DNA of 64,000 bases from Bacteroides sp. (GTDB taxonomy: Bacteria > Bacteroidota > Bacteroidia > Bacteroidales > Muribaculaceae). The notes beneath the pieces were generated by a model. It saw only the letters and a list, made by a program, of their open reading frames with translations, was not told the origin of the DNA and searched no databases. The position numbers and the translations under genes are program-made. This document shows, one piece after another, positions 39,637 to 48,312 of the stretch. Positions within the stretch are counted from its first letter, which is position 1. Each line of letters starts with the position of its first letter. The stretch covers positions 95,315 through 159,314 of the forward strand of contig JAAVCC010000011.1 of NCBI GenBank assembly GCA_014802535.1, in the 5' to 3' direction.

Positions 39637-40674
39637 ATGGCAAAAAAAAGGATAGAGACGATACGTGTTTTTGAAGGTTTCGCTGGTTACGGTGGAGCAT
39701 CCTTTGCTATGAAACGGCTTAATAAAATATTACCTAATACACGATTTAAAGTAGTAGGATTTTCTGAGATTTGTCAATCTGCAGTCGATTTATATAATGC
39801 AAATCATTTTGATACTTCCACTAACCGGCCTCTAAAAAACTGGGGCGATATAACCGAGATTAACGCGATAGAACTTCCTGATTTTGATATGTTTACTGGG
39901 GGGTTCCCTTGTCAGCCATTTTCAACAGCTGGGAATCGTCTAGGAGAACTAGACCCAAGGGGGTCATTGTTTGCTGATATCGTAAAGATTTGTCAAGAGA
40001 AAATGCCAAAATACATTTTTTTAGAAAATGTAGTCAGTTTATGCAGAGGTAAATGTAAACCAACGTATGAGGCTATTCTTGATATCTTTAAAGCAATTGG
40101 GTATGATGTCAAAACAGCTATTTTAAATTCCAAAGATTATGGTGTCCCGCAAAATAGACAACGATTATGGTTTTTTGGAATTCGCAGCGATCAAGGTGGT
40201 TTACCAGAAGGATTCTCTATGGTTCCTCCTGTGCAGGAATTAACACATTTTATTGAAGACTATTTAGACAAAACGCCATCAGAAGAATTATATCGAACAC
40301 AGGCACAAATCGATCACATAAAAGACATTCATAACAAGCCAATTGACTACTTTCATGTTAATGAGCGATTGTGTTATGACTATTATAATAAAAAGATTCG
40401 TTTTGACCGCATTTGTATGACTGTGACACCACCAAATCATAATGTCGTAAGAATTGTAGAGCCACCAATAAATGGCAAGGATAGATTCCGAAAGCTTTCA
40501 ACTGACGAGCATTTTAGACTAATGGGATTTACAATAGATCAGAATTATCGTGAAATTGTATATCCTGAACACTTAACATATATTGCATTAGGAGAACGTG
40601 CAGGCAATGGCTGGGAGATTAATTTAGTTACTAAACTCCTAGATCACATTTTTAAACAGCTCAATCATGAATAA
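39637..40674 (+). CDS. DNA (cytosine-5)-methyltransferase
   Basis: Motif I FEGFAGYGG, motif IV GGFPCQPFS, motif VI FLENV, motif VIII QNRQRLWFFG, motif X GNGW. Confidence 0.95.
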   Translation: MAKKRIETIRVFEGFAGYGGASFAMKRLNKILPNTRFKVVGFSEICQSAVDLYNANHFDTSTNRPLKNWGDITEINAIELPDFDMFTGGFPCQPFSTAGNRLGELDPRGSLFADIVKICQEKMPKYIFLENVVSLCRGKCKPTYEAILDIFKAIGYDVKTAILNSKDYGVPQNRQRLWFFGIRSDQGGLPEGFSMVPPVQELTHFIEDYLDKTPSEELYRTQAQIDHIKDIHNKPIDYFHVNERLCYDYYNKKIRFDRICMTVTPPNHNVVRIVEPPINGKDRFRKLSTDEHFRLMGFTIDQNYREIVYPEHLTYIALGERAGNGWEINLVTKLLDHIFKQLNHE

Positions 40675-40676
40675 TT

Positions 40677-45013: not shown

Positions 45014-46013
45014 TTATATTTATAAATCATGGACTCGACTCGAATCCGAGAATCATACGGGATTGGTTAAGAGATTAATTTCTCGTAATATTCCATACCA
45101 AATATATTGCATCTACGATTATTCCAATAAATCGTTTGGGATTGGTGTGTCATATCCTAAGAATATTAAAATTAATTTAACTCCGTTCTCTTCTTTGAGC
45201 CGTCTAAAAATAGAGGTTTTTGAAGATACCAGTTTTAAGAATAACCTGATTCTATCAGTATTGCTATCCGAATCGGATAAAAAAGATTTATTTTCATATC
45301 TTTGTATAAATATGATAGAAGCTATAGCGGCAGCCAAAGATATATTTACGGCAACCCAGTTGTTTGGCAACACATTGTTACGCTGGAAGAAGTTATTTGA
45401 ATCAACTCTTACAGACATTCTTTCCAAAGAAGAGCAAAGAGGTTTATATGGAGAACTAGTCTTTTTAAGGAAATTAGTTAAGCTCCATCCTTTATCCCAA
45501 TATGCTGCAATACAAACATATATTGGATGTAGTCATGCACCACGTGATTTTCAAGGAAACTCATGGGCAGTAGAAGTCAAAACGACTTCCACAAATAACC
45601 CACAGCTATTAACCATCAATGGTGAACGTCAATTAGACGATTCTTTGACTGGTATTTTATTTTTATGTCACTGCTCTGTTGAAGTAATCAGAAATTTAGG
45701 AGAAACTCTTCCTGATATAATCACCGACATCAAACATATTCTGAAATCGGATTTCGCAGCATTATCTTTATTTAATGCTAAACTTTTCGAAGCAGGTTAT
45801 AAAGAAGAATTCAATCATCAATATGCAAATATCGGATATAAAAATAGATTCATCAGATATTACCATGTGCATGAGAATTTTCCCAGAATTATTGAAACAG
45901 ACCTAAGAGAAGGAGTGGGAAATGTAAAGTATGAAATTTCCTTGCCCCAATCTGATTTGTATAGAGTAACAGAATCTCTAGTTTTAGATAAATGTACGTT
46001 AGACAATGACTGA
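45006..46013 (+). CDS. PD-(D/E)XK-motif nuclease-like protein, Mza-like component
   Basis: GELVFLRKL...PRDFQGNSWAVEVKTT fits D...(D/E)xK. An alternative start lies at 44988. It overlaps both neighbouring genes by 8 nt. Confidence 0.65.
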   Translation: MNNYIYKSWTRLESENHTGLVKRLISRNIPYQIYCIYDYSNKSFGIGVSYPKNIKINLTPFSSLSRLKIEVFEDTSFKNNLILSVLLSESDKKDLFSYLCINMIEAIAAAKDIFTATQLFGNTLLRWKKLFESTLTDILSKEEQRGLYGELVFLRKLVKLHPLSQYAAIQTYIGCSHAPRDFQGNSWAVEVKTTSTNNPQLLTINGERQLDDSLTGILFLCHCSVEVIRNLGETLPDIITDIKHILKSDFAALSLFNAKLFEAGYKEEFNHQYANIGYKNRFIRYYHVHENFPRIIETDLREGVGNVKYEISLPQSDLYRVTESLVLDKCTLDND

Positions 46014-48312
46014 ACTTGATGAATTTTATAAATCTCTAAAATCAGAGATTTTTACACGCCAACTTTCGGAAGAAAATGGAGCTACTCAAGAGCAGGTATT
46101 TACACAAATTTGCCTTGATATGCTAAGTGAGGCAAAGGAAACGGAGAATGCTGTTCTTGCATATGATGAAAAAGCATTAGGGACAAGGAATCAACATAAA
46201 GTTAATGCTTACTCTATTTCTTTGACATCTAACACACTTGATTTATTTATTACTGTATTTTCTCCAAATGAAGAGATTGAGACAATTGATAAGCAATCCG
46301 TAGAGCGTGCCTGTACCCGTGTGGAAAATTTTCTGACAAAATGCTTATCTGGGAAATACGAGAATGAGATAGCTGAAACATCAGCTGTCTTTGAGTTGGC
46401 ACATCTACTAGGTAACTCTAAAAAATTAAAAGAAAAGTTAATTAGAATTAATAGGTATGTCCTTACAAACAAGAAGTATAAAGGGGAAATTCCTATTGCT
46501 AAGGAGTTTAATGGCTATACATTATTTACGAATGTCATTGATTTAGAAAAATTGTATAGCATTTCAATGAATTCTCGTTTACCTATTCATTTAGATTTAG
46601 AAGAACAAGGCGTAGCCATTCCATGTTTGCCAATTCCTACAGGTATTGATGAATATGATGCGTATCTAACTTATCTGCCTGGGAATTTTATATCATTTTT
46701 ATACAAACAATATGGATTTAAACTATTAGAACAGAATGTAAGATCCTTTCTCCAATTTAAAGGTGGTATTAATCGAGGAATAAGAGATACTGTTTTGAGA
46801 TCTCCTAATATGTTCTTTGCCTATAATAATGGAATATCAGCCACCGCAGACTCAATTCTACTTGATGAAACAAAAACAAAGATTTTGGCAATCAATAATC
46901 TTCAAATTGTTAACGGCGGACAAACAACGGCTACCCTCTTTCATGTCTCAAAAGATGCTGGAGAAAATATTTCAAAGGTGTTAGTACCGATGAAACTTTC
47001 TGTTATCCATGAAAAAGGGAATACATTTGAAATCATAAAACATATATCAAAATTCGCCAATACACAAAATAAAATTAATGATGCTGATTTATCGGCCAAT
47101 GATCCTGTGCTTGTAGAGATTGAAAAAATCTCTAGATATATGTTAACTCCGATAACTATATCGTCGACTCATCAACATTATTGGTTTTTTGACAGAATTA
47201 GCAGACAGTATGATAATCTAATGGCACAAAGCGCTAGAACAAAGTCTGGGAAGAAGGCATTTCTTTTGAAATATCCTAAATCGTGTAAATTTACTAAATA
47301 TGAATTGGCCAAATATTATAATTCTTATTTTGAATTAATTGAGAATGGTAAGATTATAGTTGGCCCACATTGCGTTGTAGATGGTAATGAAGTAAACTTT
47401 CGAGCATTCAGGGACATTATTATGCCTTCATTAGAGGTTGATAAAATCTTTTATGAAGACCTGATTGCAAAAGCCATACTATTTAAAGAGGTTGACCGTC
47501 TTCATGGGACAAAAAGAAGTAAAACTTCACCAATCGGAGATATGAAACAAGTCATGGTTCCATATAGTATAGCCCTACTTAAAATCGCCACCAACAATTG
47601 TTTGGATTTAGGTAAAATCTGGCGTAATCAGAAAATATCTACCGAGTTATCTGATTATATGTATTCCTTGATGGTTCGATTAAATAAGTTTCTCATAGAA
47701 AATTCGCCAAGAACTAATATTATAGAATGGGCTACCAAGGAGGAATGTTGGAAATTCGTTAAGGAGGAATTCGTCATTCCGGATATCATTGTAATAGAAA
47801 ATGATATTGCAAGTCAGGCTATTATTGAAGAAAGGTATTCTAAACAAAACTTATCCAATCAGGAATTTTTTGGGGCTTCAACATCACTCATAACAGCAAT
47901 ACCTAATGATATATGGCTGAAAATTGCAGAATGGGGAAAAGACTCTGGTTGTCTAAGTTTACAGGACCAGAATTTCTCAAAAAATATTGCTCATAAACAA
48001 AAATATGGCTATAAATTAAGTGAATCTGAAACATATAGTGCCATTGACATTTACGGCATAGTCAAACTTAATAATCCTGAATTATTCATTGAGTTGGAAG
48101 AAATGCCTAGCGATAAGCTCAATAATTTTGATGCAAACATGATAACCAACATGTTAGCATGGGAGAAGTCCCCTATTATCCTAGAGAATTGGCAATTTAA
48201 GATTTTACAGAAGTCAATAAAACTTAGTTCCATAAGTGAATTCCAAATGTATGAATTATTATTTCTGGTAAGTATCCTTAACCAGCATGGGTTTGAAAAT
48301 CATACAAATTGA
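46006..48312 (+). CDS. AIPR-family protein, Mza-like component
   Basis: FAYNNGISATADS...LQIVNGGQTTATLF matches my memory of the AIPR family core. 768 aa, the last gene of the operon. Confidence 0.8.
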   Translation: MTELDEFYKSLKSEIFTRQLSEENGATQEQVFTQICLDMLSEAKETENAVLAYDEKALGTRNQHKVNAYSISLTSNTLDLFITVFSPNEEIETIDKQSVERACTRVENFLTKCLSGKYENEIAETSAVFELAHLLGNSKKLKEKLIRINRYVLTNKKYKGEIPIAKEFNGYTLFTNVIDLEKLYSISMNSRLPIHLDLEEQGVAIPCLPIPTGIDEYDAYLTYLPGNFISFLYKQYGFKLLEQNVRSFLQFKGGINRGIRDTVLRSPNMFFAYNNGISATADSILLDETKTKILAINNLQIVNGGQTTATLFHVSKDAGENISKVLVPMKLSVIHEKGNTFEIIKHISKFANTQNKINDADLSANDPVLVEIEKISRYMLTPITISSTHQHYWFFDRISRQYDNLMAQSARTKSGKKAFLLKYPKSCKFTKYELAKYYNSYFELIENGKIIVGPHCVVDGNEVNFRAFRDIIMPSLEVDKIFYEDLIAKAILFKEVDRLHGTKRSKTSPIGDMKQVMVPYSIALLKIATNNCLDLGKIWRNQKISTELSDYMYSLMVRLNKFLIENSPRTNIIEWATKEECWKFVKEEFVIPDIIVIENDIASQAIIEERYSKQNLSNQEFFGASTSLITAIPNDIWLKIAEWGKDSGCLSLQDQNFSKNIAHKQKYGYKLSESETYSAIDIYGIVKLNNPELFIELEEMPSDKLNNFDANMITNMLAWEKSPIILENWQFKILQKSIKLSSISEFQMYELLFLVSILNQHGFENHTN

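Follow-up and report, generated by a model that had tools for sequence, protein, structure and literature searches.

A run of five genes in a 64,000-nucleotide stretch of a Bacteroides sp. genome (Muribaculaceae; assembly GCA_014802535.1, contig JAAVCC010000011.1, positions 95,315 to 159,314) raises the question of what a C5-cytosine DNA methyltransferase is doing at the head of four genes that resemble the Mza anti-phage system. This whole stretch is referred to as the window, and the four downstream products (a GHKL ATPase, a Z1 ATPase, a DUF4420 nuclease and an AIPR protein) as the engine. Few multi-gene defence systems of unsolved mechanism are as widespread as the Mza-type engines, and three of the four proteins are without a solved structure. 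The analysis presented here suggests that the five genes probably constitute a methylase-linked, ATP-dependent cassette of the Mza type that is akin to a restriction-modification (R-M) system. Support comes from the families and motifs of the five products, from the constant association of the engine with a C5-methylase in related genomes, and from the experimental record of the enterobacterial relative.

The cluster and its relation to Mza

The five open reading frames (ORFs) all lie on the + strand and span 39637-48312 of the window (Table 1). The methylase and GHKL genes are separated by a 2-nt gap, the GHKL and Z1 genes overlap by 1 nt (TAATG), and the DUF4420 and AIPR genes overlap by 8 nt. 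The Z1 and DUF4420 genes overlap by 8 nt (ATGAATAA) when the latter begins at the ATG at 45006, a start taken from gene calls in relatives, and by 26 nt when it begins at the in-frame ATG at 44988. These coordinates and junctions bear out a preliminary description of the DNA, made from the sequence without database searches, in which five same-strand genes were said to be joined by overlaps of 1-8 nt or a 2-nt gap. Every motif named in that description is present in the five products, and profile searches place the engine proteins in the families to which it had assigned them (HATPase_c_3, Z1, DUF4420 PD-(D/E)XK and AIPR).

Table 1. Positions of the five genes and of associated features in the window.
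Feature	Position	Strand	Basis
C5-cytosine DNA methyltransferase, 345 aa	39637..40674	+	Pfam PF00145 DNA_methylase 7.5e-57; TIGR00675 dcm 7.4e-56; motifs
MutL/MORC-like GHKL ATPase (MzaB-like), 488 aa	40677..42143	+	HATPase_c_3 3.4e-37; PADLOC and NCBIfam MzaB; PDB
Z1-domain SF2-type ATPase (MzaC-like), 956 aa	42143..45013	+	Pfam Z1 9.4e-78; PADLOC and NCBIfam MzaC; motifs
DUF4420 PD-(D/E)XK nuclease (MzaD-like), 335 aa	45006..46013 (upstream in-frame ATG 44988)	+	DUF4420 7.5e-71; PADLOC and NCBIfam MzaD
AIPR protein (MzaE-like), 768 aa	46006..48312	+	AIPR_N 8e-35, AIPR 9e-79; PADLOC and NCBIfam MzaE
Mobile cassette, extent	39196..48694	.	blastn, 97.1% nucleotide identity to metagenome contig L085
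Leader pseudogene, XRE-type helix-turn-helix (71-74 aa when intact)	39356..39588	+	translation; alignment to intact L085 gene
Bacteroidetes-type -7 promoter box TAACTTTG	39330..39337	+	consensus match only; ahead of leader; identical in L085
Second promoter-like box TAGATTTG	39586..39593	+	consensus match only; 43 nt before methylase ATG
Decayed small ORF and Fic gene remains	48323..48700	+	alignment to L085; homology ends inside Fic gene

The methylase retains motifs I, IV, VI, VIII and X (FAGYG, PCQ, ENV, QNRQR and GNGW). Its best PDB match is M.HhaI (7e-28), and as this alignment is restricted to the catalytic core (residues 65-210) the sequence specificity is not inferable from it. The GHKL protein carries DNGCG and GRFGLG and matches the N-terminal domains of MutL and MORC in the PDB; a weak NCBIfam match to the BbrUII/HgiDII restriction enzyme family, which also has a GHKL domain, was found as well. 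In the Z1 protein, GQVQSGKT (with the Walker A GKT), DDEAD and TAT are present and weak ResIII/SNF2 matches stand beside the Pfam Z1 match; its closest named relative is from an uncultured Duncaniella (68%). The DUF4420 protein has the motif DF..EVK, and residues E150, D181, E190 and K192 are invariant in an alignment of 69 homologues, as expected of an active PD-(D/E)XK nuclease. The AIPR protein has NNG and NGGQT motifs, with N274-N275-G276, N303, G304, Q306 and T307 invariant and G305 nearly so. Its last ~180 residues (~589-768) are helical and fall outside both the Pfam AIPR domain and the MzaE model (residues 10-588); this extension is typical of AIPR proteins of the Bacteroidota type (770-790 aa), compared with ~590 aa in the type that accompanies MzaA.

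The preliminary description had called the cluster 'Mza-like' and proposed a PADLOC search, and both PADLOC and NCBIfam now match all four engine proteins to MzaB, MzaC, MzaD and MzaE. The PADLOC matches are 6.9e-106 for MzaB (residues 7-487), 3e-147 for MzaC (residues 6-935), 2.5e-19 for MzaD (partial, residues 92-281) and 4.9e-79 for MzaE. The NCBIfam models, which are of the equivalog type and titled 'MZA anti-phage system associated' MzaB to MzaE, give 4.5e-124 (NF041932, 414 bits against a cut-off of 850), 2.5e-179 (NF041933, 598 against 1500), 6.6e-38 (NF041934, 131 against 420) and 3.2e-102 (NF041935, 343 against 1050). Because these bit scores are 31-49% of the curated cut-offs, the proteins are clear homologues and not equivalogs. 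The gene letters, left uncertain before, can be assigned as B for GHKL, C for Z1, D for DUF4420 and E for AIPR, and the methylase has no letter in the Mza scheme. MzaA, an ankyrin and sigma-70-like protein (PDLC02203; Sigma70_r2/r4 plus Ank) encoded upstream of MzaB and identified in 23 related loci, had no match in the six-frame translation of the window when searched with a hidden Markov model (HMM) of the related loci's copies. With scores this far below the equivalog cut-offs and MzaA absent, the cluster is, on these comparisons, a divergent methylase-linked sister form and not canonical Mza.

The Mza of Salmonella and E. coli shares the order of the engine genes, but differs from the window in several respects. 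A small XRE-type helix-turn-helix (HTH) leader, dead here, takes the place of MzaA; the operon opens with the methylase gene, whereas the Mza type has a convergent vsr-methylase pair downstream; the AIPR protein is ~180 residues longer at its C-terminus; and identity to an enterobacterial locus (L062) is 23-37%. PMC9523054 credits mzaABCDE to Gao et al. 2020 (Science), in keeping with the preliminary description, which traced the name to a 2020 defence-system screen. In E. coli, mzaABCDE confers 10^3-10^4-fold protection against T4(C) and T4(hmC) and weaker protection against glucosylated T4, with no growth arrest at any multiplicity of infection, while purified MzaD cleaves phage DNA in vitro and defence is weakened by point mutations in MzaD (bioRxiv 10.1101/2022.06.16.496414).

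The closest published counterpart is a putative 'type II' system of Miller et al. 2022 (PMC9523054), whose core of Z1, a DUF4420-type PD-(D/E)XK protein and a cytosine methyltransferase is joined by AIPR, a MORC-like protein and a small regulator. The core, the AIPR protein and the MORC-like GHKL protein are all present in the window, but the regulator is a pseudogene here (it is intact in loci L081-85 and four others), and the only basis of the Miller system is embedding-based prediction. Iyer, Abhiman and Aravind 2008 had earlier predicted R-M function for operons that combine MORC/paraMORC, superfamily II (SFII) helicase, restriction endonuclease (RE)-fold nuclease, DCM, VSR and AIPR (PMC2292703). 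The window shares the theme of GHKL, SFII helicase, RE-fold nuclease, DCM and AIPR, but theirs is a class drawn up computationally rather than a defined system, and the window is without Vsr. The novelty that the preliminary description implied is reduced accordingly: its observation and interpretation are sound, but the methylase-linked form has already been published in these two studies. As in Type II R-M systems with a controller (C protein), directly upstream of the methylase and restriction genes there is a small HTH gene that has a promoter box of its own, though the restriction part here is a four-protein ATPase and nuclease engine instead of a single endonuclease and the regulatory role of the HTH protein is putative.

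Methylase linkage and exchange in related loci

A scan of the genome collection with a Z1 alignment yielded 80 related loci with Z1 identities of 33-48%, distributed among Bacteroidota, Proteobacteria, Cyanobacteria, Chloroflexota, Actinomycetota, Bacillota and two methanogens (Methanosarcina and Methanoregula); Z1 homologues at E<=1e-10 number more than 6,500. The order GHKL-Z1-DUF4420-AIPR is constant over the 80 loci. An iterated HMM search detected a C5-methylase within ~5 kb in 73 of them, and the other seven are all cut by contig ends beside the core, such that no locus with full flanks lacks a C5-methylase and all 73 evaluable loci are positive. In the 23 loci that encode MzaA, Vsr and a convergent methylase typically come right after MzaE, and therefore the canonical MzaA type is also methylase-linked. 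Vsr was identified in 46 of the 80 loci, a co-occurrence that argues for real methylation of host DNA in this family; none was found in the 64-kb window. A Type IV (modification-dependent) reading of the cluster was considered and rejected, as the operon encodes its own methylase and Vsr accompanies the methylase in relatives.

The linkage is constant, yet the methylase that fills the position is not. All 26 locus pairs with a Z1 identity of at least 70% have full-length orthologous methylases, a pattern in which methylase and engine co-diverge within clades. Across clades the methylase has been replaced, and at least 10 homology groups that are not orthologous to one another can be told apart among the 73 methylases. 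Among the related loci the 345-aa methylase type is confined to its own lineage (the window and L081-85); it aligns to the methylases of other loci over ~30-40% of its length, whereas the engine proteins can be aligned over their full length, with 33-58% identity. A 74% methylase homologue heads a GHKL-Z1 cassette in a Treponema metagenome-assembled genome (L089). Every methylase partner found is a C5-methylase, and the engine seems to be tied to 5-methylcytosine and not to one sequence.

The methylase family also occurs apart from this engine. A ~60%-identical methylase is partnered with a McrB-like AAA_5 protein and a ~750-aa protein in three loci (L086-88), and in three others (L090-92, ~7001-10456) a C5-methylase 59% identical to that of the window stands with a 75-aa HTH protein and a 690-aa AIPR protein, without GHKL, Z1 or DUF4420. 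The methylase module is therefore not engine-specific. It is distinctly improbable, however, that methylase and engine are functionally separate neighbours, with the engine sensing a cue other than methylation and the methylase an orphan or in the service of another nuclease. Such a separation would agree with these other partnerships and with the testing of canonical Mza as five genes that include MzaA and no methylase, but it sits poorly with a C5-methylase at 73 of 73 evaluable loci, the MzaA-bearing proteobacterial type included, with a methylase stop only 2 nt ahead of the GHKL start and with the co-divergence within clades.

Because the module in L090-92 is without the other engine genes, AIPR can evidently pair with a methylase alone. 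This bears on the proposal that AIPR is the main effector, acting by abortive infection as an AbiU-like toxin with the nuclease and ATPase proteins as its sensors, since the module would show it to work without the other three; the AIPR protein of the window also matches PADLOC AbiU (4.7e-22), and AIPR/AbiU1 has been linked to abortive infection and R-M systems (PMC3506569). The probability of this proposal is nevertheless very small, given that E. coli mzaABCDE causes no growth arrest, that nuclease mutants of MzaD cut defence and that the AIPR model has no recognised catalytic toxin fold. The AlphaFold2 models are confident (predicted local distance difference test scores of 91 for DUF4420 and 85.5 for AIPR, from alignments of 62-69 sequences), and sub-threshold Foldseek hits of the AIPR model to McrC, the ParB-N domain of pNOB8 and HamA are leads only.

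Several loci depart from the common arrangement. Five (L002, L018, L020, L029 and L076) have two extra genes between the methylase and GHKL genes, one for a protein of ~700-750 aa with two GHKL-type domains (HATPase_c_3 plus HATPase_c) and one for a protein of ~370 aa without a family match. In another five, of the Flavobacteriia type (L040, L043, L048, L071 and L079), the Z1 protein reaches 1046-1291 aa and a separate DUF4420 gene was not detected; the longer Z1 protein may represent a nuclease fusion or replacement. Next to the AIPR and methylase module of L090-92 is a Type II R-M system, of the HpaII type or another, that includes Vsr.

Mobile origin and the leader gene

The cassette of the window recurs on metagenome contig L085, flanked there by a relaxase gene on one side and Fic/HTH/HipA genes on the other, and a 75%-identical lineage (L081-84) has it beside Mob_Pre and Fic. 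The cassette occurs in runs of gut and mouse metagenomes. The window has lost the relaxase side of the element, and comparison with these contigs identifies the cassette as the remnant of a mobilizable element of Bacteroidales within a low-G+C defence island that follows mnmE. The G+C content is 0.32-0.36 across ~39.5-52 kb, relative to 0.43-0.46 in mnmE and 0.41-0.43 past 52.5 kb, which agrees with the earlier observation that the island is AT-richer than mnmE and the flanks (0.41-0.46); the low-G+C tract outreaches the five genes and includes a pair of genes of a cyclic oligonucleotide-based anti-phage signalling system (CBASS). Horizontal acquisition, proposed in the preliminary description from composition, is now backed by the near-identical cassette on a relaxase-bearing contig.

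In the window the XRE-type leader carries two lesions: an A-run has lost 1 nt at 39456, and at 39520 CAA has become TAA. Both positions are intact in L085 and in the contigs of four further metagenome runs. An assembly error could account for the homopolymer deletion; the nonsense change is distinct from it. Contig L093 was rejected as an independent confirmation of the lesions, being 100% identical to the window over 21.4 kb and so the same genome. In relatives the intact leader lies ~48 nt ahead of the methylase. A gene of this HTH family is found in front of the methylase in L081-85, L004, L006, L009 and L071, and as the last four have other classes of methylase, the HTH gene is a part of the cassette and is not tied to one methylase. 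Fusions of HTH and methylase also exist in the methylase family of the window (P0214 and P0218).

Two matches to the Bacteroidetes promoter consensus lie before the leader and before the methylase (Table 1), of which the downstream box at 39586 is a possible independent promoter of the methylase and operon. It should be noted that the TAnnTTTG box has 101 matches in the window against 72 expected, and single boxes are consensus matches only. Scans of the window for sigma-70 promoters and terminators performed at or below chance and were not used.

These observations could also describe a silent or decaying remnant, in which the element has eroded, the leader is dead and the five genes are intact only through recency. 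This is unlikely, though it draws on the two independent HTH lesions, absent from L085 and four other metagenome runs, on the loss of the relaxase side and the fragmentation of the Fic gene, and on the lack of a Vsr in the window to offset deamination of 5-methylcytosine. Conversely, neither a stop nor a frameshift interrupts the 8.7 kb of AT-rich coding sequence and the catalytic motifs are all intact, one of the two lesions could be an assembly error, and with a second promoter-like box directly before the methylase, expression need not hinge on the leader. Ratios of nonsynonymous to synonymous substitution (dN/dS) of 0.06-0.17 for all five genes against the 97%-identical L085 indicate that all five are under purifying selection, but these values mostly record history before the lesions and so are not decisive.

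An inverted repeat, GCTCTGCAC...GTGTAGAGC, lies at the left edge of the cassette (39196-39316). Numerous short contigs of high depth from four gut metagenomes match it, a pattern suggestive of a repeated element, or of a mobile-element end common among these bacteria. Upstream, between 38000 and 39500, across the 3' half of mnmE and the spacer that precedes the island, GC skew is strongly negative (-0.19 to -0.37) and AT skew is positive.

Proposed mechanism and neighbouring genes

For the methylase-linked R-M-like cassette we infer the following self/non-self logic and division of labour. The methylase would place 5-methylcytosine on host DNA as a mark of 'self', and the GHKL, Z1, DUF4420 and AIPR proteins would form a complex that surveys DNA. 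Within this complex the Z1 protein would contribute ATP-driven translocation or unwinding, the GHKL protein would form an ATP-dependent dimer that clamps or loops DNA as MutL and MORC do, the DUF4420 protein would cleave DNA that is without the mark, and AIPR would act as a DNA-binding, sensing or licensing subunit. The XRE-type HTH leader would probably time or limit expression, providing control of establishment like the C proteins of classical R-M systems. We infer from the 73 of 73 methylase linkage only that the nuclease would be blocked by cognate methylation.

Several points weigh against this reading. The tested Mza system of E. coli and Salmonella was named as five genes without a methylase (PMC9523054; bioRxiv 10.1101/2022.06.16.496414), and for no member of the family does an experiment tie the methylase to protection from the engine. 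The low fraction of the equivalog cut-offs reached by the four proteins makes extrapolation from canonical Mza indirect. PDB sequence searches with the Z1, DUF4420 and AIPR proteins returned no match, and Foldseek searches of the AlphaFold2 models against the PDB returned nothing at E<0.1, with the DUF4420 output consisting of noise only (kinases). A usable RNA run for the cluster was sought and none was found, and with its leader HTH broken the operon may be silent or misregulated. Finally, the reading leaves unexplained how one conserved engine matches at least 10 unrelated methylases.

A further suggestion is that the engine has no DNA sequence recognition of its own and either reads the presence or absence of 5-methylcytosine or uses the methylase as its reader, such that any C5-methylase could be plugged in. 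The suggestion is doubtful as it stands, though it fits the association of at least 10 non-orthologous methylase groups with one engine and the appearance of the methylase family with McrB-like and AIPR-only partners. Were it true, the XRE-type leader would be an establishment timer and this genome a natural controller knock-out, a loss that would be tolerated because the methylase keeps its own promoter.

With respect to the methylase-linked R-M-like cassette, the window does not present a new kind of system, but an ordinary member of a widespread, described and undissected family. The comparative data sharpen the point at issue, in that the engine is always linked to a C5-methylase, the canonical MzaA type included, despite many exchanges of the methylase itself. 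A convenient construct with which to ask whether 5-methylcytosine is the self mark, and which subunit reads it, is the compact form of the Bacteroidales (HTH-M-B-C-D-E, ~9.5 kb), for which a mobilizable element is the carrier.

Downstream of the cassette, a 270-aa ORF on the - strand (48839-49651) lies between the cassette remnant and the CBASS genes and has no Pfam, PADLOC or NCBIfam match. The two-gene CBASS occupies 49815-51970 in the same low-G+C island and consists of a patatin phospholipase effector (PADLOC Effector 1.9e-89; Pfam Patatin 1.9e-25) followed after 6 nt by a CD-NTase (PADLOC Cyclase 5.5e-122).

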